64,000 bases of DNA from Candidatus Binatia bacterium (GTDB lineage Bacteria > Desulfobacterota > Binatia > Bin18): assembly GCA_963666315.2 (NCBI GenBank), contig CAXXHG010000043.1:288001-352000 (forward strand). Reading direction: 5' to 3'. The number at the start of each line of letters is the position of its first letter. Position 1 is the first letter of the stretch. The notes beneath the pieces were generated by a model that searched no databases, had not been told where the DNA came from, and worked only from the letters and a program-made list of their open reading frames with translations. The position numbers were made by a program, and so were the translations under genes. This document shows, piece after piece, positions 34,876 to 48,186 of this stretch.

Positions 34876-34991
34876 AGCAGGTAAATCAACGCGAGGTGGG
34901 TCTACTTGTCAACACCCTACACCGAGCAGTTGACTTCCACAGCACAAGCACGCAGACTTCTAGAACTCCTTTGCGCGCAGGAGCAATACCC

Positions 34992-35075
34992 ACGGCACTT
35001 GAGTATTTTGAAGAATATGGAATCGGCGTGGAGTTTGCGACCAAAGCCCGTACAATTACCGAAGCCGATATCGTC
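34992..35075 (+). pseudogene. 5' remnant of a MaoC-family dehydratase gene
   Basis: AGGAG, then ACG (probable ex-ATG), then ALEYFEEYGIGVEFATKARTITEADIV; truncated just before glcD. Confidence 0.65.
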
Positions 35076-35097
35076 GAGAAAAACAATAGGTATTCCT

Positions 35098-36522
35098 ATG
35101 GATGAAAAAGTTGTGAATCGGCTGTGTGAACTGGTCGGCCCGGATGGGGTGGTGGCCAACAAAAACGCGCTCTCGGTCTATGACTGCGACGGATATACGC
35201 TGGAAAAATCCATCCCTGAGATCGTGGTCCTGCCGCACTCAACCGAAGAAGTTTCAGCGGTTGTTAAATTTCTGAACAAAGAAAAGATCGCCTTTGTTCC
35301 TCGCGGGGCTGGGACGGGACTGAGTGGTGGCTGCCTGCCGGTCGAGGCACCGGTCATGATAGGCACGAGTCGGCTCAATAAGATTGTGCATATCGACGTG
35401 CTGAATCGCTACGTTGTTGCCCAGTCTGGAGTGGTAAACCTGTGGGTGAGTAACGCCGTAAAAGATCAGGGCTTACAGTATGCACCTGACCCGTCTAGCC
35501 AGCAGGCGTGCACCATAGGCGGCAACGTGGCCGAGAACTCTGGTGGTCCACATACGCTCAAATACGGTGTTACGACCAACCATGTGCTAGGCCTGGAAGT
35601 CGTTCTGCCTGATGGAGAAATCGTGACCTTAGGCGGAACTGTGGAAGACGTCCCTGGTTATGACCTGCGCGGCATTACCATTGGTTCAGAAGGTACGTTT
35701 GGCATTGTCACCCAAGCTGCTCTACGACTGACGCGTCAGCCGCAAGCCTACCGGACCTTTCTGGCCGTATTTGAGTCCGTTCACCAGGCAACCCAAACAG
35801 TATCGGGCATTATTTCCTCCGGCATTGTTCCCGCCGCTCTGGAAATGATGGACACGCTTATCATCCAAGCTGTAGAGGAAGCCTTTCATTTCGGCTTTCC
35901 AACCGATGCCGGTGCTGTGCTGATCATCGAAATTGACGGCCTTACCGCCAGCCTTGATCCGCAGACAATCAAGATTCAGGACGTTTGTAAGCAGAATAAC
36001 GCCCGTGAGGTCCGTATCGCCCGCGACGATGCCGAACGTATGGCGTTATGGAAGAGTCGTAAGCGTGCGTTCGGGGCAATCGGGCGTTTATCTCCGAATT
36101 ATTGTACCCAAGATGGTGTTGTCCCCAGAACAAAAATCCCTGAGATTTTGCGGCGTATCATCGCAGTGGCGGACAAGTACCAGCTTCGGATTGCCAATGT
36201 TTTTCACGCCGGAGACGGGAATATTCATCCGATTCTGTTGTATGATGAGCGCGATGCCGACGAAACCCAGCGTGTGGTCAAAGCGGGCCAGGAGATCTTG
36301 GAGGCCTGTATCGATCTGGGTGGAAGTCTGACCGGCGAGCACGGCATCGGCATAGAAAAAATGAACCTGATGCCGCTCATGTTCAGTCCAGAAGATCTTC
36401 TGGTCATGACCCAGCTCCGCTCTGTCTTTAATCCCGATAATCTGTGTAACCCGAACAAGATCATTCCGACACCAGGCGGGTGCATTGATGTCAAAACCCC
36501 TAGACGTCAAGTCCCGCTGTAG
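35098..36522 (+). CDS. glcD: Glycolate oxidase FAD subunit GlcD-like
   Basis: PRGAGTGLSGG, PDPSSQ, FHAGDGNIHP, GEHGIG; start ATG 35098. Confidence 0.92.
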   Translation: MDEKVVNRLCELVGPDGVVANKNALSVYDCDGYTLEKSIPEIVVLPHSTEEVSAVVKFLNKEKIAFVPRGAGTGLSGGCLPVEAPVMIGTSRLNKIVHIDVLNRYVVAQSGVVNLWVSNAVKDQGLQYAPDPSSQQACTIGGNVAENSGGPHTLKYGVTTNHVLGLEVVLPDGEIVTLGGTVEDVPGYDLRGITIGSEGTFGIVTQAALRLTRQPQAYRTFLAVFESVHQATQTVSGIISSGIVPAALEMMDTLIIQAVEEAFHFGFPTDAGAVLIIEIDGLTASLDPQTIKIQDVCKQNNAREVRIARDDAERMALWKSRKRAFGAIGRLSPNYCTQDGVVPRTKIPEILRRIIAVADKYQLRIANVFHAGDGNIHPILLYDERDADETQRVVKAGQEILEACIDLGGSLTGEHGIGIEKMNLMPLMFSPEDLLVMTQLRSVFNPDNLCNPNKIIPTPGGCIDVKTPRRQVPL

Positions 36523-36552
36523 CACGGGATCCTGCCCGAGAAAGCGAGACGC

Positions 36553-37836
36553 ATGAGCGAGGCTGAAGATCGCCAGAAATTTATTATTGATGGGAAAGAA
36601 CCGCAAACGGTTGCCTATCCCACATCCATCGACGAAGTTTCGCAACTTCTCAAAGAGGCGAATGAACAAGGCCGAGCGGTGAGCCCTATTGGGCACGGGA
36701 CGTTTCTGCATATTGGCGGGGTACCGAAACGCTATGATCTGGCGCTTTCCACCAAGGCCCTCAATCATATTGTTGACTACCATCCGATTGACATGACGGT
36801 AAGGGTTGAAGCAGGCATGACCCTGGCTCAGCTCCAAGCGACGCTTGGAGAACATGCTCAGTGGTTACCGCTCGACCCCCCCCTTCCTGAGCGAACGACT
36901 ATCGGCGGGATCATTGCTGCGAATTTGAATGGACCAGCCCGACTCTCCCAAGGGACCGTCCGTGACTTTTTGATTGGTTTGGGAGTCGTTCGGTCGGACG
37001 GGACATTGATCAAAGGTGGCGGCCAGGTGGTCAAAAACGTTGCCGGCTATGATCTGCCCAAGCTGTATTGTGGCTCGTTCGGCACGCTGGGCGTTATTGT
37101 CGAAGCCACTTTTATGGTGCGTCCGCGACCCGAGACGCAAATAACACTGGCATTCACGTTTCCCTCGGCTGAGAAAGCCGGGGAGGCTGCACTCAAGATC
37201 ACAGGCTCAGATTTGCAACCCTTTTTCCTTGAGCTGGCCAATTTCTCTCCTTGGACTCATTCGCCAGATCAGGTAGGCCAAGGGGAGAAAGAGAAGGAAT
37301 ACTGTCTGTTCTTGGGTTTTGCCGGCATCAGAGAAGAGGTGGATGATCAACGCGCACGCATCCGTGACATAATCGGTGAAGGGGAATATCAAGTTGAAGA
37401 GCTGGCGGAAGATACGGCACGGACGCTCTCGCAAACCTTGCGAGATTTTCCTGTATCCGGAAAGGCCGCGTTACGGTGTAAAGTCGGTCTTTTATCAACC
37501 CAGCTGGCAACGTTCTGTGCCGACCTGGATACAGAAGCGCAGCGCCGCCAGATTCCCGGACGTCTCTTAGCCCGGGCGGGCAATGGTGTCCTGTACTGTG
37601 CTTTTGATGCAGAAGCCGTTGCCAACGATCAGCTCTTGGGTCTGGTTGACTGGATACGTGTACATGCAACGCGAAACAATGGATTTGCCGTTGTTGAAGA
37701 GATCGCCTCGGCGCTTAAAGGACGAGCCGATGTGTGGGGTAACGTGGGAAAAGCGTTTCCTCTGATGCGAAAGCTAAAAGAAACCCTTGACCCGAACGGT
37801 ATTTTGAATCCCGGCCGGTTTGTTGGTGGGATATAA
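36553..37836 (+). CDS. glcE: Glycolate oxidase FAD-binding subunit GlcE-like
   Basis: GGQVVKNVAGYDL, DPNGILNPGR. Confidence 0.88.
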   Translation: MSEAEDRQKFIIDGKEPQTVAYPTSIDEVSQLLKEANEQGRAVSPIGHGTFLHIGGVPKRYDLALSTKALNHIVDYHPIDMTVRVEAGMTLAQLQATLGEHAQWLPLDPPLPERTTIGGIIAANLNGPARLSQGTVRDFLIGLGVVRSDGTLIKGGGQVVKNVAGYDLPKLYCGSFGTLGVIVEATFMVRPRPETQITLAFTFPSAEKAGEAALKITGSDLQPFFLELANFSPWTHSPDQVGQGEKEKEYCLFLGFAGIREEVDDQRARIRDIIGEGEYQVEELAEDTARTLSQTLRDFPVSGKAALRCKVGLLSTQLATFCADLDTEAQRRQIPGRLLARAGNGVLYCAFDAEAVANDQLLGLVDWIRVHATRNNGFAVVEEIASALKGRADVWGNVGKAFPLMRKLKETLDPNGILNPGRFVGGI

Positions 37837-39096
37837 ATGGAAAACGTATCTTTTGTTGATCACGAAAAATTCTTTGACTGCGTGCATTGCGGCTTATGCC
37901 TGGCTGCATGTCCGACCTATGTCGAACTAGGCACAGAGATGGACTCGCCCAGGGGGCGTATTGTGATGATGCGTGCGCTCCAGGAGGGACACGCCGAGCT
38001 CAACGAGGAGGTCGTCCATCATCTTGACCTGTGCCTTGGCTGCCTGGCGTGTGAAACAGCCTGCCCGTCCGGGGTGCAGTACGGCAAACTCATCGAGGGT
38101 GCTCGGTCGTTTATCGAGCAGCATTACCATCGGTCGTTGCTCGAGCGGATCAAGCGCTGGACAATGAATAAGGTTTTCCCCAATACGTTGGCCATCCGCC
38201 TCTTCGCCCTGGTCCTGAAGACTGGGGCCGCACTCGGACTTGGCCGTTTTGCTCGGTCAGAAGTGATGCCACCGAAACTGCGCTACTGGTGTAGCCTGCT
38301 GCCGGAGCGCGGAACAGTGTCTTCTGCTTCCCTGCTTGAGCGCTATGCAGCGATTGGTGAGAAACGCTATACCGTCGCCGTCCTCTCTGGCTGTGTGATG
38401 CCGGCTCTATTTGGCGCAACGAATCAGTCCACAGTCAAGGTGCTGCGCCACAACGGCTGCGAAGTCCTTGTCCCCAAGGCTCAATCATGCTGCGGGGCGC
38501 TGCTGCTGCATAATGGCGATAAAGACTCGGCCCTGTCTCTGGCCAAACACAATATTGACGTCTTTAGCAAGCTTGAGTTTGATGCCCTCATCATCAACGC
38601 CGCTGGGTGTGGGGCGATGATGAAAGAGTACGATGACCTGTTCAAACACGATCCTGCCTACCGGGAAAAAGCTGAACGCCTGACGGAAAAAATGAAAGAT
38701 GTGGCCGAGTTTATTGGCAGCCTGCCGCTCAAGACGCCGACGCGTGAGGTGAGAGCGAAGGTCACCTATCATGATGCCTGTCACCTGGCACATGCACAGG
38801 GCGTCCGAGAGCAGCCGCGCGCCTTGCTTCAGCAGATTCCCGGCCTGACACTAACCGAGCTCCCTGAATCGGACTGGTGCTGCGGCAGTGCCGGCACCTA
38901 TAATCTGACCCAACCCGAAATGGCGGCCCAGCTGCTCGAGCGGAAAGTCGGCAATATCCAGACAACCGAGGCCGACGTCGTAGTGACCAGCAATCCGGGC
39001 TGTTTAATGCAGATCCGGGCTGGTCTGCAGCAGCGCGGATTGCCAATAAAAGCCGTGCATGCCATTGATCTGCTGGCTGAGGCCTACGAGGAGTAG
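37837..39096 (+). CDS. glcF: Glycolate oxidase Fe-S subunit GlcF-like
   Basis: Two CxxCxxCxxxCP motifs, CCG domains. Confidence 0.92.
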   Translation: MENVSFVDHEKFFDCVHCGLCLAACPTYVELGTEMDSPRGRIVMMRALQEGHAELNEEVVHHLDLCLGCLACETACPSGVQYGKLIEGARSFIEQHYHRSLLERIKRWTMNKVFPNTLAIRLFALVLKTGAALGLGRFARSEVMPPKLRYWCSLLPERGTVSSASLLERYAAIGEKRYTVAVLSGCVMPALFGATNQSTVKVLRHNGCEVLVPKAQSCCGALLLHNGDKDSALSLAKHNIDVFSKLEFDALIINAAGCGAMMKEYDDLFKHDPAYREKAERLTEKMKDVAEFIGSLPLKTPTREVRAKVTYHDACHLAHAQGVREQPRALLQQIPGLTLTELPESDWCCGSAGTYNLTQPEMAAQLLERKVGNIQTTEADVVVTSNPGCLMQIRAGLQQRGLPIKAVHAIDLLAEAYEE

Positions 39097-40945: not shown

Positions 40946-42397
40946 TTATTGTCCCTCTTTGATTCCCGCCAACTCACGAGCGTATGCCGCCGCGGCAGCA
41001 AAATCATATTCGCGGTAGGTCTGAATCTTTTCCGCTTCGAGCGACCCCTCGGCATGGACGGCTAAGACTTCTTGATAGCCGCCATAATCAGATGCGGTCA
41101 GATCAGAAATCAGATTCATCATCCGCAACCGGTGCTCGGTTGAGGTGCCCTTTTTTCCACCGAGATATTTCTGGACATACGGGCCGGTCGCTTCACTGCG
41201 CCAATCCTCGACACTCGGACCAGTGACGAGTAGCCCTCCGCTGACATCCTGTACCATCTGTACGGCCTGGTGATAGTTGGCCGCAAACTGGTATTTGGCC
41301 ACATTGGTCATCAGCGTGTTCGGCATCGCGATGCCCGGCGGCACAACTGAGTGCTGGTGGGCTGCTGCCAGAATCAACCCTTGGACGGTAGCGTGGTAGC
41401 TGGCCAATTTAGTCAGCTTCTCGCGAATATGACCGGCTTTCTCGATGCCGTTGTACTCGGCAATTGCCTGGGATGCGCCAGCCAGAAGTTCCAGCAAAGG
41501 CAGTTTATAAGAGACGGCAGTAAAGCGGTGAAATTTCACGAAGGTCAGGGCCATCAAACCCGCGGCTGCCACCTCGCCGGCCAAGAAAACGCGCTCCCAG
41601 GGGACAAACACATCGTCGAAGACCGTCAGCGTCTCCATCATTTTGTGCTTGGCGCTAATCGGATACTCGAAGGCATCTCTCTCGAAGCCACCATAGGAGC
41701 TGGCTAGGAGCTTCAGCCCTTTTGTGGCAGCAGGCACGGCAAATGCCACTGCGTAGTCTTCATCACCTTCGCGCATAGCGCGGGTAGGCAGGACAATGAT
41801 TTCGTCCGTATTCGTGGACACTGAGGTATGGATCTTCGCTCCGCGGACGACGATACCGTCGTCACGCCGGTCCACAATCCGTAAATAATAATCTGGATGT
41901 TCCTGCCCCTGGGGGCCCAGGCTACGGTCGCCTTTTACGTCGCTCTGTGCCACGGCAACGGCGTAATCGTTGTCGCGACACAGTTCATAATACTTTTGTA
42001 CCCGTTCACGATATTGTCCCGCGCCGTGTTTGGCCATCTCTTCGGCGACAATATGGAGAGCGAAGAGTGCGTCCGTACCGATTTCTTTGATCAGAATCAC
42101 CAAGGTCGCGCCCTCGCGGGTGCCGGCCGCAATCAAGCGACTGCGTTGGAGAAGATCTTCGGTATTGCGCGGGATATGGTAAAAGCGCGAATATACTACG
42201 CCGGTCTCGGGATCCGTGACAACGGCGAGATCACGATAGCGTGGGTCTTCGGCCATCTGATAGTCGATGCAGGCGTGTTCAACCGCCTTCCTAATCACAG
42301 GATGGGTGGTAACATCGTCGACCTTCTCGCCCCGATAATAGACCTCCCGGCCGTCTCGCAGACTCTCTTTATATTGCTCCGGTGTGCGCAAACCCAT
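40946..42397 (-). CDS. 4-hydroxyphenylacetate 3-hydroxylase family protein
   Basis: YKESLRDGREVYYRGE, SDVKGDRS, IVVRGAK, VFDDVFVPWERVF. Confidence 0.9.
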   Translation of the reverse strand: MGLRTPEQYKESLRDGREVYYRGEKVDDVTTHPVIRKAVEHACIDYQMAEDPRYRDLAVVTDPETGVVYSRFYHIPRNTEDLLQRSRLIAAGTREGATLVILIKEIGTDALFALHIVAEEMAKHGAGQYRERVQKYYELCRDNDYAVAVAQSDVKGDRSLGPQGQEHPDYYLRIVDRRDDGIVVRGAKIHTSVSTNTDEIIVLPTRAMREGDEDYAVAFAVPAATKGLKLLASSYGGFERDAFEYPISAKHKMMETLTVFDDVFVPWERVFLAGEVAAAGLMALTFVKFHRFTAVSYKLPLLELLAGASQAIAEYNGIEKAGHIREKLTKLASYHATVQGLILAAAHQHSVVPPGIAMPNTLMTNVAKYQFAANYHQAVQMVQDVSGGLLVTGPSVEDWRSEATGPYVQKYLGGKKGTSTEHRLRMMNLISDLTASDYGGYQEVLAVHAEGSLEAEKIQTYREYDFAAAAAYARELAGIKEGQ

Positions 42398-42631
42398 GCT
42401 ATACTCCTCGTCTGGAAAAGTGCAGTGAGTATAACCGTGACCCGGCTTATTTGTCCATCTCCCCCTACAGCCCGCGCTAAGATAAGGAGACAGCGGTGCT
42501 CAGCAAGCGATGTTGAGAAAAAGCTGTGGAAAATGGCGAGGATTGCCGCTACCAAGCATGCCTCACAGAGGAAGACCTTCATGCGAGACATACAAGACAG
42601 ACAAGATATAGATGGGTCGTGTATTCCGAAA

Positions 42632-42856
42632 CTACTCAGCGGTGGGAAAACCCAAAAGAGTTGACCAGGTTCGTTCAGGAAAGCTGTCTAGCGAATGGGA
42701 CACGGAGATCTTTGCTCCGGCAAAATTCCCCCGGAGCCGGACTTTGCCGCTGTTTATCAATGCGGTCACTGCGGTAGCCACCTCCTGATCGTCGTCAGTG
42801 ACCCGATTAACCCCTTGCAGTAAATCAATCAATGTACATTCAATCTGCTTTTGCAT
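42632..42856 (-). CDS. Small hypothetical protein (74 aa)
   Basis: GGGGAGG RBS; DDQEVATAVTALINSGKVRLRGNFAGAKI; sigma54-like promoter upstream. Confidence 0.7.
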   Translation of the reverse strand: MQKQIECTLIDLLQGVNRVTDDDQEVATAVTALINSGKVRLRGNFAGAKISVSHSLDSFPERTWSTLLGFPTAE

Positions 42857-42890
42857 TGTTTCCTCCCCCTTTGTTCGTAGAGGAAAGTTA

Positions 42891-42906
42891 AGCAAATTTC
42901 AAGCCA
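42891..42906 (-). promoter_or_regulatory. Putative sigma54 (-24/-12) promoter
   Basis: TGGCTTGAAATTTGCT has GG-N10-GC spacing. Confidence 0.6.
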
Positions 42907-43036
42907 AAATAAACATAGCCAATGACATACACAATATATTCTCCAATGTTTCAATATTGCACATGAATTTATTCTGTCAGCTGTCCTCCACACAAAAGGT
43001 ACGGCAAAATATTGCCACCTCTCTGTGCTCTTTTTG

Positions 43037-43546
43037 TCACTTCTCGCGCACAGTTTGCAGAGATAGAGACTGCAGGGTGAGCCGGAGCAGTGTTGTTGGA
43101 GCCTTTGGTACAGAGGAGGATTCCGAACTCGTCACTGTTCCCAATTCCTCCAGCTTGTCACGCAGCTCGGTCAATTTTGCAGAGGGGACAGAGAGAACGA
43201 TCAGGTCTTTTTCATCTTTCACCAATACCGCTGCCTCAAACTGCTGGATAACGGCCCGCACCTCGGCATGCATTTCTGCCGGGCCTTGCTGATCTTTTTG
43301 ATCTTGCTGATCTTGGCTCGAGAACTCCCAGGAAAGGGTAATGATAATACTACCACTCCCCTCAGGAAAAGCGGAAGCGCCGTCTTGAGACCAGCCTGGC
43401 AGTGCTGAACTGAACGTCAGCACCAATAGAGTCAGGCCCAAAACAAGACAGACAAGACGGGATTGATATTTCCTTTGCATTTGTTTTTCCATACCTGCGT
43501 CCCCCATTCTCATTGTGCCGTCTTCTCTAGCCCGAGAAAAGACCAT
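43037..43546 (-). CDS. Hypothetical exported protein (start uncertain)
   Basis: Signal-peptide-like segment, then small alpha/beta domain (VPSAKLTELRDKLEELG). Confidence 0.6.
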   Translation of the reverse strand: MVFSRAREDGTMRMGDAGMEKQMQRKYQSRLVCLVLGLTLLVLTFSSALPGWSQDGASAFPEGSGSIIITLSWEFSSQDQQDQKDQQGPAEMHAEVRAVIQQFEAAVLVKDEKDLIVLSVPSAKLTELRDKLEELGTVTSSESSSVPKAPTTLLRLTLQSLSLQTVREK

Positions 43547-43642
43547 CTTTTGGTCAGCGCTACTCCTCGTGTCTCATTTGCGTTGCAATCAAACACAGCG
43601 TACTGTCTGCGGCATACTCACACGTAGCCAGCCCACTCTTAT

Positions 43643-44143
43643 ATGGCAAGACGTCAACCCAAGAACGTCAAGGGACGTACGCAACAAGACAAAAGAATCG
43701 GGGCAACACTCCTTCGTATTCTGGGCGGACTATCGACCGAGGAACTCAGTGACCCCGACAAGACAGCCCGCTCGATAGACCGAACCGTTCGTATTATTGC
43801 GGCCTATACTGTCGTGGCCGCATTCGCGATTTTCTTTTTATCGATTCCCAGTTTTATTCGACCGGACGGCAGTCTACACGTAGAAAATTTTGCAGCATTT
43901 TTCCGGATTGGAAATCAGTTCGCTGATTGCCTGGCGCTCCTCTCGCTGAGCCTTTTTCTTGCACGCTCAAAAAACCTGCCCATTGCAGTTATCCTCGCAG
44001 GCCTCGCCGGCTTTGAATCGTATGTCTACGCGCAACACTTCGTAATGCACGATTTTGTCATGCTGCTGATGAGTCTCATGGTCCTGGTGCACGCCCTCCA
44101 GATTCTGGGACTCCTGATCTTCGGACACAAAAACGCCGCGTAA
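43643..44143 (+). CDS. Hypothetical membrane protein (about 4 TM)
   Basis: Basic N-terminus, hydrophobic helices; ends 16 nt before the symporter start. Confidence 0.7.
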   Translation: MARRQPKNVKGRTQQDKRIGATLLRILGGLSTEELSDPDKTARSIDRTVRIIAAYTVVAAFAIFFLSIPSFIRPDGSLHVENFAAFFRIGNQFADCLALLSLSLFLARSKNLPIAVILAGLAGFESYVYAQHFVMHDFVMLLMSLMVLVHALQILGLLIFGHKNAA

Positions 44144-44159
44144 ACAATAGAGACGATGT

Positions 44160-46075
44160 ATGACCATCTTTATTGCCTCCATTCTCTCCTTGATGGCTAT
44201 GCTGTGGGCCTTGGGCTGGTATGCCAAGCGCTGGGTCCATACCGACAGTGACTATCTCCTGGCCGGGAGACAGGTCAGTCTGATTCCCGGTATCGCCAGC
44301 ATCTGCGGGATCGCTTTTGCGGGCAGCATGACGAGCATCATCCCTGGCTTAACCGTCCAGTACGGCTTTCTCGGCTGGATCTTAGGCGGCAGTCTGCCCT
44401 TGGTGATTGGCTATATTTTGTATGGCGTCTTCGCCTGTCCCTATATCCGACGCTGTGGGGCGTACACGATTCCTGAGTGGCTGGAAATGCGATTTGATAC
44501 CCGCACTCGTGTGGTGGTGAGCATTGCCACGCTGCTCGGTGTCACCGGTATTGTGGCCATGAACGTTGTCGCCATGGCGTTCATTATGCAGGGCTTTCTT
44601 GACGCTCCGCTGTGGCTCATGATTACTATTGTCCTGGCTGGGCATCTGGCATTTATTTTCATGGGTGGTCTGTGGGCGCTCACCCTGACCGATGTCGTTC
44701 AGGTCCTGCTGGGGTTTCTCTTCCTGCCAGCGCTGGCGGTGTACTGTCTCGTCACTTTTGGCGGCTGGGAGCTGATTAAGACGCAGTTTGTCAGCCCGAC
44801 TCCCCTGTCAGCCGGCCTGCTGGGACCTTTTCCTTGGTTCCAGTTGAGCTATCCGAGCGTACTCACCGCCACGCTGTTGCTGTGCATCTTCATCCAATGG
44901 GCGGGAACTATTACTGGCTGCGCGCCGCTGCTGCACGCACAGAACCGGTCGCGCAGTGGCAATTTATTATCGGCGGACTGCTCGTGCTCATCATCCATGG
45001 TTCTATGGGCGTGCTTGGCCTATACGCGGGCAGTGTGTACCGCGAGGCATTTCTCGATAGTGCGAACCCGGCCAACCCAATGAGCGCGTATGGTCTCCTG
45101 ATGCGGGATTTTCCTGCAGGCATCGCATTATTAGGTTTGGTTGCCGCACTTGCCGCGACGATCTCAACCACGAGCAATGCGCATATGGGCATCACGTCAA
45201 CGCTGGCGCGTGATATCTATCAGCGCTTTATCCGCCCCAACGCCACGCCAGAAGCGGTGCTGCAAACGAGCCGCATTCTCACCCTGCTCAGCGGCATTGT
45301 CATATGGCTGCTGTGTTTCTACCCAGGCGGGCCGTATTTTCTCCTGGGCGTGAGTTGCGCCATGCTCGGTCCGACGGCTTTTGTTTTTCTGCTCGGGCAT
45401 CGTTGGACGTATATCACCTCTGCTGGAGCGTTTTGGAGTACGCTGGTCGGGGCAGTGGCGATGCTTGTATACGAAATCCTCAAACTGACCGGGGTACCCG
45501 TTGGATCGGTGCATACCGTTATTATCGGTACCGTCATCACGCTGCCGACCGTACTCGGCGTGTCTTTCTTCACCCAACAAAAGCCGGACGGCACTCTTGC
45601 CGGAGACCAGTCACATACCGTCGCCCTCAGTCCCGATCAGCAGCGCCTGCTGAGGCTCATTCGCACCGGCTATACAACTATGGTCGAACTGAGCGACTTC
45701 ATGGCGCTGCATGCAGTCGGGTGTCATCGTCTCATCACAGAACTCGAACGCATAGGCCTGATCCAGCGCTGGGGATCACGTGGACTTGATTTTTTCACCT
45801 TTGCCTTAACGGCAAAAGGAGACGCCCACCTCTCCCAGTTCCCCAATTCGCCGGCCGGTTTTGTGACGCAAGACGCGGATAGCCGTACCGTTCTGGAGCA
45901 GCTCAAACACGAAGCCAAAAATCTCCAGACGCTGAGTACGACCACGGGAATGGCCCCGTCGATGCTCAGCGTGGTCGTCAATCGGCTCGACCAGCTCGGC
46001 TATGTGAGCGGGTCTGGCATATGGCAACGGACCATCACCCTGTCAGAAAAAGGGCGCGTGCTGGTGTCCCCCTAA
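44160..46075 (+). CDS. Sodium:solute symporter (SSS/SLC5) fused to two C-terminal winged-helix domains; one frameshift at ~44900
   Basis: DYLLAGR, TIPEWLEMRFD, GGLWALTLTDVVQ, LAATIST, RDIYQRFIRP; one extra G in TGGGCGGG gives IQWGGNYY and joins the two ORFs. Confidence 0.85.
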
Positions 46076-46156
46076 TGCGCACCGATCGTACCCCACAAGC
46101 ACGAAAAAACGGCTAAAAAAACCTGTATCGAACAAATTGAAAAAGAGGGAACGCCG

Positions 46157-47269
46157 ATGTCTCACACTATTGTCGATACCATACTGCCAACAACCATGGT
46201 GGGCTCTTATCCCCGACCGCACTGGTTTACCTATCAGCTCCACGGGCGAGATATTTGGGATGCATTCAAGGACGTCAACCACGCCGAAGCCTTTGAAGAT
46301 GCCGTGCGGACCGTGCTGCGAGACCAAGAGCAGGCCGGTCTCGACATTCTCACCGACGGCCAGATGTGGTTCGACGACTACGGCGGCTGCATTGGGTCCT
46401 TTGTGTGGTATTGGTACGAACGCATTCACGGCTTTGTCCCGGTCAAACATAGCCATCCGCTTGTCGAAGGCGGGAATGTGTCACAAAACGATGCCGCCTG
46501 GTTAACCGACTGGGGCGCAACATCGGTAACAGACACAGTCAGACGCGGACCGCTGCGGTTGGCCGACCTATACCATATCGCCCAACGTAATACGCATAAG
46601 CCGGTGCGGTGTAGCGTGGGAGCCGGACCGATTAACCTCACCTATCATGTCCATCTCGAACACTACAAAACCCAGAAAGATCTCGCCTACGCTTTGGTGC
46701 CTATCTTTAATGCTGAGATGAAAGAAATGGTGGCCGGCGGGGCGACCTTCTTACAATTAGAAGACCTTGGAGTGTGGCTGCCCGTGTTGAGCGGGAATAC
46801 CGATGACTTTGACTGGGTAGTGGACGTCATCAATAAAACCGTTGACGGCGTTGAAGCGAAGCTCTCGTTGCATTTCTGCTTTGGCGCCGCATGGGGCAAT
46901 ACCTCACGAGGCTTATTCCCGTCAGACGCAGGCTATGGTTCTCTCTTACCGCATCTGCATGACATACAGATTGAACAGTATGTGCTCGACTTTGCCGTCC
47001 GAGAAATGGAAGATGCGCATATTCTGAAAGACCTTCCCCAGGACAAAGAAGTCGCCGTGGGTGTCATTGATGTGCGCAACCTTCAGATTGAAACACCCGA
47101 ACAAGTCGCACAACGCATCCGTAAGGTGCTCAAGTTCATCCAGCCGGAACGCCTCACCCTCACCACCGACTGCGGTCTGCGTGCTCTGCCCCGCTTCTGT
47201 GCCTATAATAAACTGCGCGCCATGGTTGAAGGCGCACGGATAGTTCGAGCTGAGATTGCAGGCGGCTAA
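46157..47269 (+). CDS. Cobalamin-independent methionine synthase catalytic-domain family Zn enzyme (resembles epoxyalkane:CoM transferase)
   Basis: LPTTMVGSYPRP, DQEQAGLDILTDG, HFC, GVIDV, TTDCGL. Confidence 0.88.
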   Translation: MSHTIVDTILPTTMVGSYPRPHWFTYQLHGRDIWDAFKDVNHAEAFEDAVRTVLRDQEQAGLDILTDGQMWFDDYGGCIGSFVWYWYERIHGFVPVKHSHPLVEGGNVSQNDAAWLTDWGATSVTDTVRRGPLRLADLYHIAQRNTHKPVRCSVGAGPINLTYHVHLEHYKTQKDLAYALVPIFNAEMKEMVAGGATFLQLEDLGVWLPVLSGNTDDFDWVVDVINKTVDGVEAKLSLHFCFGAAWGNTSRGLFPSDAGYGSLLPHLHDIQIEQYVLDFAVREMEDAHILKDLPQDKEVAVGVIDVRNLQIETPEQVAQRIRKVLKFIQPERLTLTTDCGLRALPRFCAYNKLRAMVEGARIVRAEIAGG

Positions 47270-47328
47270 GAAGAGACCGCCGGTGTGAAAAAGCCACCGG
47301 CAATCACTAAGAGCTGCGCCTTGAGTGG

Positions 47329-48186
47329 CTAACAGAACGATAGGCTGGCTGGTGTTGTGTTTCCATTGTGCGACACGCGGGTTGGTGCAACGTTTTTTGA
47401 CGCAATCTTAATATGCCAGGGTTCAAAGCGTACGCCGAACAGATTGTTTTTCGGATATCGAATTTCAATATACCCAAAGGCCGCCAATTGTTTGAACACC
47501 TCCGTCTTGGCAAACTCGGAGGTAAAATTTCGCCCACCGAGGCCCTGCTCGCCTACATCAAAATCGCCGATGGCATGATACGAATAGCCCGGTGGGGCAA
47601 GCGAACGGAAGGCCATAGACAGATTCCCCCGTGTCTGGGCTACCTTGGCGAGAAACAGATGGGTCTGTTTAATAATCCCGCGGACGCCGGACGTGAGCAG
47701 CAGCTGGTCGCCGATGACGTACTGAATTTCTCGATACTCGCTAGTCGCCTCCTCATAAAAGATACGTTCCAAAAAATCGATCTCACGGCGCGGAAAGCGC
47801 CCCACTCGGGAATAGCGACGGGCCACGCGGAGGGCATGATCAAAACCGAGGATTTGAAAATTCCCGTGTCCGACTATGACTTGTAACCGGCCTAAACGCC
47901 CCACAACACTATGCAGGAGTGTACGCTCGCTCAGACTCAGGTGTATGTCGGACGGGTGGGGCCGGTTAAAGCGGGTAAGCTTTTGGAAATACTCTTGGCC
48001 GTATTGTTGTTTTGCCGCAAGCTGGCGTCCGGAGGATAGGTGTCCGGAGGACAGATTCAGAGAAGGACCGAGCGGTCCTTCTCTGAGGCCGCCATCCACA
48101 GCGTTGAGGGACACGTGGACAAACCAGGCTTCCCCTATGGCCACCACCCCGCCTACCACCGCCTTCAAAAAACCACGTCTTTCCAT
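47329..48186 (-). CDS. M15-family D-Ala-D-Ala carboxypeptidase with Tat signal, probably internally deleted
   Basis: RRGFLK, LTSGVRG, APPGYSYHAIGDFD, FEPWHI. Confidence 0.82.
   Translation of the reverse strand: MERRGFLKAVVGGVVAIGEAWFVHVSLNAVDGGLREGPLGPSLNLSSGHLSSGRQLAAKQQYGQEYFQKLTRFNRPHPSDIHLSLSERTLLHSVVGRLGRLQVIVGHGNFQILGFDHALRVARRYSRVGRFPRREIDFLERIFYEEATSEYREIQYVIGDQLLLTSGVRGIIKQTHLFLAKVAQTRGNLSMAFRSLAPPGYSYHAIGDFDVGEQGLGGRNFTSEFAKTEVFKQLAAFGYIEIRYPKNNLFGVRFEPWHIKIASKNVAPTRVSHNGNTTPASLSFC

Follow-up and report, generated by a model that had tools for sequence, protein, structure and literature searches.

Predicted SLC5-type transporters paired with a tandem winged-helix module, fused in Candidatus Binatia and other bacteria and encoded by separate neighbouring genes elsewhere

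Signalling through secondary transporters is understood for a few cases only, namely CbrA/CrbS, LysP-CadC and AmtB-GlnK. ToxR and CadC carry an N-terminal OmpR-type winged helix-turn-helix (wHTH) domain, a single membrane helix and a periplasmic sensor; DNA binding has been shown for them, and signalling by CadC depends on the LeuT-fold transporter LysP as its co-sensor. GlnK, a small soluble protein encoded in the same operon, binds the cytoplasmic face of AmtB and controls AmtB. Transporters can also sequester regulators, as is the case for Mlc by PtsG and for CadC with LysP. In CbrA and CrbS of Pseudomonas and Vibrio, a transporter domain of the sodium:solute symporter (SSS/SLC5) family is followed by a four-helix STAC bundle and then by a kinase. 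Here we describe a gene at 44160-46075 of a 64,000-nt stretch of Candidatus Binatia DNA (the window; all bp coordinates are window positions), which is predicted from its sequence and from structure models to encode a 13-helix SSS/SLC5 secondary transporter with a cytoplasmic C-terminal module of two wHTH domains.

With CbrA/CrbS, the encoded protein shares a 13-helix SLC5 domain, a short linker from the last transmembrane helix (TM13) and a small cytoplasmic domain at the inner face, the last of these being predicted here and, for CbrA, taken from a cryo-electron microscopy preprint that describes 13 helices and a cytoplasmic following domain (PMC13022988). It differs in that two winged helices with β hairpins, and not a four-helix STAC domain, come after TM13, in that PAS, HisKA and HATPase domains and any kinase output are missing, and in that the module also exists as a separate gene. 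A Pfam search of the protein at E ≤ 1 gave no HisKA, HATPase or other signalling family, and the chain ends 157 residues past the membrane domain, which sets it apart from the STAC/kinase fusions just as an earlier note, made from the sequence alone, had supposed. With ToxR/CadC it has in common a DNA-binding-type winged helix held at the membrane, here fused to the transporter itself, whereas its wHTHs are C-terminal, MarR-like and placed after 13 membrane helices. AmtB-GlnK differs in the use of a PII trimer instead of a tandem wHTH and in the transporter family, and control of the transporter by the module is only presumed here.

Two ORFs (open reading frames) on the + strand, lying in different frames, span the gene: 44160-45083 (307 aa) and 44834-46075 (413 aa). 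The Pfam SSF profile (PF00474, curated cut-off 22.8 bits) matches the N-terminal ORF with 57.8 bits over profile positions 1-231 of 406 and the C-terminal ORF with 46.4 bits over positions 243-406, both halves together covering positions 1-406, as befits a sodium:solute symporter. On the NCBIfam side, the matches stay at the superfamily level (TIGR00813), with weak PutP, PanF and VC_2705 hits, all far under their cut-offs. Guided by P0001, an intact homologue of 641 aa that is 90% identical to the window protein, the N-terminal part of the transporter (TM1 to the first half of TM7) is read at 44160-44900 in the frame of 44160, and the C-terminal part (second half of TM7 to TM13) at 44900-45574 in the frame of 44834. 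The linker from TM13 to the first winged helix follows at 45575-45625, with low predicted local distance difference test (pLDDT) values of about 56 at model residues 480-490. Winged helix 1, acidic, is encoded at 45626-45832, and winged helix 2, mildly basic, at 45863-46072, all on the + strand. The peptide strings on which the earlier note had based the fusion are found in the 413-aa ORF. As that note had stated, this ORF carries the tail and the C-terminal transporter half in one frame. The fusion is real.

The full-length AlphaFold2 (AF2) model of P0001, computed from a 59-sequence alignment, has a pLDDT of 90.5 and a pTM (predicted template modelling score) of 0.91. It contains 13 membrane helices, the last one ending at residue 475, in a LeuT-type fold, and its best Foldseek matches are SGLT2, SiaT, CHT1, NIS and SMCT1 (TM-score by target 0.66-0.78). 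The TM-score by target against CHT1 is 0.74-0.77 for outward-facing entries and 0.69 for inward-open ones; the SGLT2 entries show no such difference. Lysine and arginine residues are located in the short loops after TM1, TM7 and TM9 of the model, and this distribution, together with the topology of CbrA, therefore places the tail in the cytoplasm.

The tail comprises the last 157 residues (45602-46072). When modelled alone by AF2 (pLDDT 87.9, pTM 0.80), it forms two units at residues 11-69 and 92-147, each with three helices and a β hairpin, and both blocks reach pLDDT 92-95 in the full-length model of P0001. Each unit has the MarR-type wHTH fold. The first, with the order helix-helix-helix-strand-strand, superposes on MepR (5f6f) with a Z-score of 12.0 over 74 residues (model residues 7-82); the second superposes on BpsR (6pco) with a Z-score of 13.0 and 1.8 Å root-mean-square deviation (rmsd) over 72 residues (model residues 85-157), and also on 7el2 (Z 12.7) and on the MarR-DNA entry 5h3r (Z 12.2). 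That the tail would fold as wHTH, as the earlier note expected, is thus borne out by the model. When the PDB is searched with a profile made from 52 tails, a MarR regulator comes up at E 1e-6, its wHTH region being matched by either half of the profile, and MntR at about 2e-3. In contrast, every Pfam wHTH match of the window tail stays under its gathering threshold: MarR_2 with 23.7 bits (cut-off 27), MarR with 20.4 (24.6), HTH_24 with 19.4 (21.9), DprA_WH with 21.3 (22.9) and HTH_IclR with 17.2 (22).

Compared with MarR regulators, each tail domain has the same type of fold (Z 12-13, rmsd 0.9-2.5 Å over 64-74 residues). The differences lie in the sub-threshold Pfam scores, in the two wHTHs being in one chain and tethered to a 13-helix protein, in the acidic character of the first wHTH, whose wing carries G-x-(G/D)-F-(Y/F)-T-F in place of a basic hairpin, and in the lack of the N- and C-terminal helices through which MarR proteins dimerise, the tail having only its two helix-helix-helix-hairpin units and a linker. 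It had been suggested in the earlier note that the tandem wHTH mimics a MarR dimer. This idea is rejected as unsupported: besides the missing dimerisation helices, MarR structures align to one tail wHTH at a time, and matches to the whole tail are weak and go to YcaQ/AlkX, ScpB and SelB (WH2-4), at TM-scores of 0.32-0.37 and E-values of 2e-4 to 1.5e-3. The tandem winged helices of these three bind protein, RNA and DNA alike; with rmsd values of 8.5-15 Å they have another domain arrangement, and none is associated with a transporter. Across the 52 aligned tails, D32, L48, R56 and G61 of wHTH1 and G139 and R143 of wHTH2 are invariant (tail numbering), and W141 of wHTH2 is present in 44.

The fusion is not a peculiarity of the window. 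A protein search gave 87 matches, 82 of which are 631-670 aa long and 57 of which have a precomputed wHTH Pfam family. At the DNA level, with one genome taken per species, 93 of 110 candidate stretches encode relatives; among the best 80, which were kept, 76 give complete ORFs aligning to the end of the tail, and the remaining 4 are cut by contig ends. The homologues accordingly share the architecture, as the earlier note had anticipated; the fusion is kept across three phyla and is no artefact of the frameshift of the window copy. The carriers are metagenome-assembled genomes (MAGs) of Candidatus Binatia as well as members of Bacillota and Spirochaetota, among them the cultured Virgibacillus litoralis, Brevibacillus panacihumi, Sporosarcina luteola, Bhargavaea species, Mesobacillus maritimus and Spirochaeta africana, which make the system testable. 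The family is nevertheless rare and patchy: among 401 sampled genomes from the Bacillota phylum, 10 match the tail profile, and among 301 from the phylum to which the window belongs, 2 do, both in its genus. No publication describing an SSS-winged-helix protein was found by full-text literature searches, in agreement with the earlier note, which knew of no characterised SLC5-wHTH fusion, and in a 2021 review of prokaryotic SSS proteins (PMC7918813) the terms 'winged', 'MarR' and 'DNA-binding' each occur 0 times.

The same module is also found outside the fusion. The tail profile was searched against 1.84 billion representative sequences, and 183 matched at E ≤ 1e-3. Among the 150 matches listed, which were re-scored and classified, 28 are fused and full length, 50 are proteins of 140-200 aa, 32 are C-terminal fragments and 40 belong to none of these classes; 39 of the 50 short proteins are clean free-standing proteins of 149-183 aa, whose Met start lies a few residues ahead of helix 1. 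Five free-standing genes could be placed on DNA, and every one of them is accompanied on the same strand by a gene for a tail-less SSF protein. At locus L086, on a metagenome contig (cluster member labelled Bathyarchaeota), the order is cyclase, metallo-beta-lactamase, SSF (558 aa) and wHTH (171 aa), with an 8-nt overlap. L103 (genome G213) has TrmB, a permease, AFOR, ferredoxin, wHTH and SSF (480 aa), with a 4-nt overlap, and L104 (genome G389) has wHTH, a hydrolase and SSF (519 aa). L123 and L124 (genomes G732 and G710) share one arrangement, wHTH, SSF (551 and 557 aa), a PEP-hydrolase-like gene, UPF0261 and GntR, so that the five split loci show four independent arrangements.

Compared with the fused family, the SSF proteins of the split loci show 28-31% identity and score 100-176 bits, whereas an unrelated SSF scores 68 bits. 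The free L086 protein shares 28% identity with the window tail (E 2e-17), and one free-standing protein, in its Atlas model, matches the tails of two fused SSF clusters with TM-scores of 0.80-0.81. Because the free genes sit with tail-less SSF genes, because these SSFs are related to the fused ones and because the models superpose, the pairing of transporter and tandem wHTH is constant in fused and split form alike, whereas the enzymes around it vary. The split-gene form of the module is a new finding of this work. Taken together, a distinct SSS subfamily emerges that has the same two-wHTH partner throughout, in Binatia, Bacillota, Spirochaetota and, in split form, in an archaeon labelled Bathyarchaeota.

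This pairing raises two questions. First, does the module bind to the transporter? Second, does it still bind DNA? For the first, the membrane domain (residues 1-478) and the tail (residues 490-641) of P0001 were co-folded as separate chains. The interface score ipSAE was 0.74-0.75 in three runs, the best of three controls reaching 0.01; at least 98% of the contacts are common to the runs, and the partner pLDDT is at least 79. In a benchmark, which holds only roughly here given that our own alignment was used, 116 of 157 solved complexes came up to this mark, as did 2 of 215 mismatched pairs. The co-fold supports binding of the tail to the transporter, short of showing it. The predicted contacts on the transporter are residues 25-43, 94-110, 175-176, 260-261, 351-356, 364 and 414-417, that is, TM2 where it starts on the cytoplasmic side, the loop that follows TM3, and TM6, TM7/8, TM9 and TM11 at their inner ends. 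Many of these residues lie in what we take to be general SSS motifs, e.g. R-x-T-x-P-E-W-L-x-x-R-F and R-D-I-Y-Q-R, and their conservation alone is therefore no argument for an interface.

On the side of the tail, the predicted contacts are residues 26-28, 31-32, 35, 37-39, 42, 59-62 and 65-66 of wHTH1 and residues 108-109, 119-120, 123, 127 and 139-143 of wHTH2 (tail numbering). They correspond to the starts of helix 2 and helix 3 and to the wing tips of both units, and include the invariant D32, G61, G139 and R143. In MarR-type complexes, the helix 2 and helix 3 starts and the wing tips are the elements that contact DNA. As the predicted interface uses these DNA-reading elements, DNA binding would be excluded in the docked state.

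We propose, giving the idea about an even chance of being right, that the tail docks on the transporter and serves at its inner gate as a regulatory cap or coupling element, similar in role to STAC. The tandem-wHTH module, which is a separate protein of about 160 aa elsewhere and is fused to the transporter here and in about 80 relatives, would be the transporter's own partner, a rigid unit derived from MarR-type, DNA-binding winged helices. It would sit under the membrane, where both wHTHs would press on the region of the inner gate with their helix 2, helix-3 start and wing tips, and the acidic wHTH1 would face conserved arginines of the inner face of the transporter. In such a position the cap may sense or restrain the opening of the inner gate, much as STAC may do beneath the transporter domain of CbrA, instead of serving as a free head for DNA binding. 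We infer that the cap would have an effect on transport and that some signal might release it.

Several observations weigh against this proposal. The closest resemblance of both tail domains is to wHTHs that truly bind DNA, MarR entries with bound DNA among them, and wHTH2 has conserved lysine or arginine at tail positions 128 (94%) and 131 (77%) besides R143 (100%); even in wHTH1, position 43, which aligns with the usual DNA-contacting arginine, is lysine or arginine in 46% of the sequences. Among the neighbouring genes scanned at the Binatia loci, the window included, there is no other regulator gene, and a conserved block of about 34 bp is located upstream of the Binatia operon in the divergent intergenic region. 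Moreover, the docking is a prediction by two related methods, and a docked resting state would be compatible with release and DNA binding.

These are largely the observations that speak for another interpretation, put forward by the earlier note, in which the protein is a one-component transceptor. Here we take it to mean that the tandem wHTH would be a DNA-binding head, held in one transport state and released to an operator near the operon, and that, where the genes are split, the free protein would move back and forth between the transporter and DNA. The MarR-like fold and sequence signal of the tail, the basic residues of wHTH2, the lone position of the Binatia operons with their upstream block, the existence of free-standing soluble homologues and a linker whose roughly 20 residues might allow the tail to swing outwards all fit this interpretation, and the sequestration of regulators by transporters, mentioned above for Mlc and CadC, would be its precedent. 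We nevertheless consider the transceptor less likely than the cap. In both wHTHs, the predicted transporter interface takes in the conserved residues along with the canonical elements for reading DNA. The net charge of wHTH1 is acidic in both forms, with a mean of -3.2 (range -9 to +1) in 52 fused tails and of -2.6 in 26 free proteins; for wHTH2 the means are +2.2 and +3.3, respectively, and for the wHTHs of six neighbouring TrmB-type regulators the charge is +2 to +6. The start of helix 3 in wHTH2 is largely hydrophobic or small, e.g. SxLSVVV or SLKASAIL. The wHTH and SSF genes overlap or are only a short gap apart, which suggests that the two products are subunits translated together.

The surroundings of the genes also argue against the transceptor. 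When up to three genes on each side were scanned at 17 fused loci, a dedicated regulator gene was found to adjoin 11 of them (6 TrmB-type, 2 sigma-54 activator, 2 MalT/LuxR and 1 histidine kinase), and the same is true of 3 of the 5 split loci, with TrmB at L103 and GntR at L123 and L124. The two intergenic regions that the earlier note had named as possible targets, scanned over 43540-43650 and 46070-46160, contain no repeats or palindromes. The conserved non-coding block, at 43577-43610, corresponds to near-invariant columns 115-148 of 43463-43662 in an alignment of 23 orthologous upstream regions; lying upstream of the gene for a small membrane protein, it is likely, judging from sequence conservation, a candidate promoter or operator. 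No consensus sigma-70 site or repeat was detected within it, and over 43300-46400 only 2 consensus sigma-70 promoters were found, both lying on the minus strand within the gene, where shuffling predicts 1.9. The 11-mer core of the block has 9 matches in the genome versus 11 for the reversed control; it is not enriched, and there is therefore no sign of a regulon. No RNA element was found in 42300-47400 at E ≤ 1.

It is possible, if less likely than the cap alone, that the SLC5 domain holds a DNA-binding module on its inner gate by the module's own DNA-reading faces, with flux-driven opening of the gate freeing the module, in fused or split form. In that case transport flux would be read directly as transcription, with neither a kinase nor a second messenger, and the system would be the first SLC5 one-component transceptor, a fused/split counterpart of the sequestration of regulators by transporters. 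A module that still binds DNA would then make the simplest known link from transport to transcription. If, on the other hand, the tail is a cap, DNA-binding domains would have been re-used as a transporter regulator, and SLC5 proteins would have, in this module, another way besides STAC to have their inner gate read.

There is also a slim chance that the tail acts neither on the gate nor on DNA but as an adaptor, which recruits a cytoplasmic protein such as a neighbouring TrmB-, GntR- or sigma-54-type regulator or an enzyme. Regulator genes are indeed common as neighbours, and the whole-tail fold matches include protein-binding tandem winged helices, e.g. ScpB. Against an adaptor speak the fact that the neighbouring regulators and enzymes vary by clade while the SSF-wHTH pair stays constant, and the lack of any regulator near the Binatia loci.

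The copy in the window is itself broken. At 44899-44901 (+ strand) it has GGG where relatives have GGGG, so that the reading is shifted by -1; at the join it reads IQWAG and then TIT, whereas P0001 and all other homologues read IQWGGNYYWLR, and the extra G is present in all homologues of 90% identity or less. A contig of run X8, from marine sediment, represents a strain 98-99% identical to the window (7 base differences in 563 bases), in which the frame is restored by an additional G behind 44898. Contigs of runs X1, X4 and X5, from three studies, equal the window over 44500-45300, break included; their depth is low (2 to 7.2), the window may itself derive from one of them, and X1 and X5 resemble each other and may not be independent. 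The position of about 44900 given by the earlier note for the frameshift is confirmed by these homologues and run contigs, which locate the missing G in the G-run.

By our own reading, 6 of the 8 listed base differences to the X8 strain fall on third codon positions of the restored frame, and the break is therefore young. The window copy is probably a recent pseudogene that arose by a one-base deletion, and the local importance of the gene is correspondingly small. An error of assembly or sequencing, with the gene in truth intact in the organism, appears quite improbable as the origin of the frameshift. A single base within a short G-run, the shallow contigs that show the break and a sequence that still looks constrained, in view of the third-position differences, would all fit an error. 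On the other hand, a three-G run is not a typical error site, the break is shared by the contigs of X1, X4 and X5 with the restrictions just given, and the gene call of the collection for this genome is a C-terminal fragment of 331 aa (P0002). Programmed frameshifting at 44899 was considered and rejected: there is no slippery heptamer, and the frame runs on unshifted in the near-identical strain as in all homologues.

The genome (4.99 Mb, 47 contigs, 92% complete) retains an intact paralogue on contig 27 (locus L002, 2417-3574 on the - strand), which is 56% identical and has an open frame of 663 aa. Binatia MAGs generally have a pair of paralogues each, whose identity to P0001 is about 76% and 62%. 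Four fused homologues from the Bacillota phylum contain one internal stop each, TGA in L093 (G162), TAA in L099 (G247) and TAG in both L118 (G721) and L119 (G740); counting the window frameshift there are five broken copies, to which decay, recoding or sequencing error may have contributed. G247 carries two copies 3.7 kb apart.

Upstream of the transporter by 16 nt, at 43643-44143 (+), lies the gene for a hydrophobic protein of 166 aa with no Pfam family, which tblastn finds immediately upstream of the orthologous transporter at 22 Binatia loci. Its position recalls that of CbrX, a small membrane protein encoded just upstream of CbrA that binds to the SLC5 domain of CbrA, as described in the preprint (PMC13022988). 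The 166-aa protein is a possible accessory subunit of the transporter; it was not found beside the second paralogue or in other phyla. On the other side of the intergenic region, at 43037-43546 (-), a protein of 169 aa with a hydrophobic N-terminal segment and no Pfam family is encoded, with 19 related loci at 30-85% identity. It is preceded at 40946-42397 (-) by an HpaB-family flavin-dependent oxygenase (HpaB_N 296 bits, HpaB 191 bits; 20 related loci, 89-99% identity). Downstream of the transporter, at 46157-47269 (+), follows a protein resembling cobalamin-independent methionine synthase (Meth_synt_2, PF01717, 84.1 bits; 17 related loci, 83-98% identity). The order in the window is thus HpaB (-), the 169-aa protein (-), the 166-aa protein, the transporter and Meth_synt_2, with a luciferase-like oxygenase and an aminotransferase further on, and it is kept in about 17-22 Binatia loci. 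The HpaB and Meth_synt_2 flanks are much better conserved among these loci than the transporter-wHTH gene itself (about 65-93%).

In Bacillota, the neighbours are instead a PF04199 cyclase, BKACE, an FAA hydrolase or a metallo-beta-lactamase, and in the split operons AFOR or a PEP-hydrolase-like gene with UPF0261. Because the neighbouring genes differ by clade, no substrate can be named. The PF04199 'putative cyclase' gene accompanies the transporter-wHTH pair in 11 of the 17 fused loci (L054, L057, L059-L061, L063, L073, L077, L079, L081 and L083) and in the archaeal-type split locus L086; it is often joined by BKACE, the FAA hydrolase or the metallo-beta-lactamase, and these genes may form a candidate shared catabolic pathway. 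Elsewhere in the window, at 34906-39096 (+), two FAD_binding_4/FAD-oxidase_C genes and a CCG/4Fe-4S gene lie side by side and have a GlcDEF-like (glycolate-oxidase-type) look.

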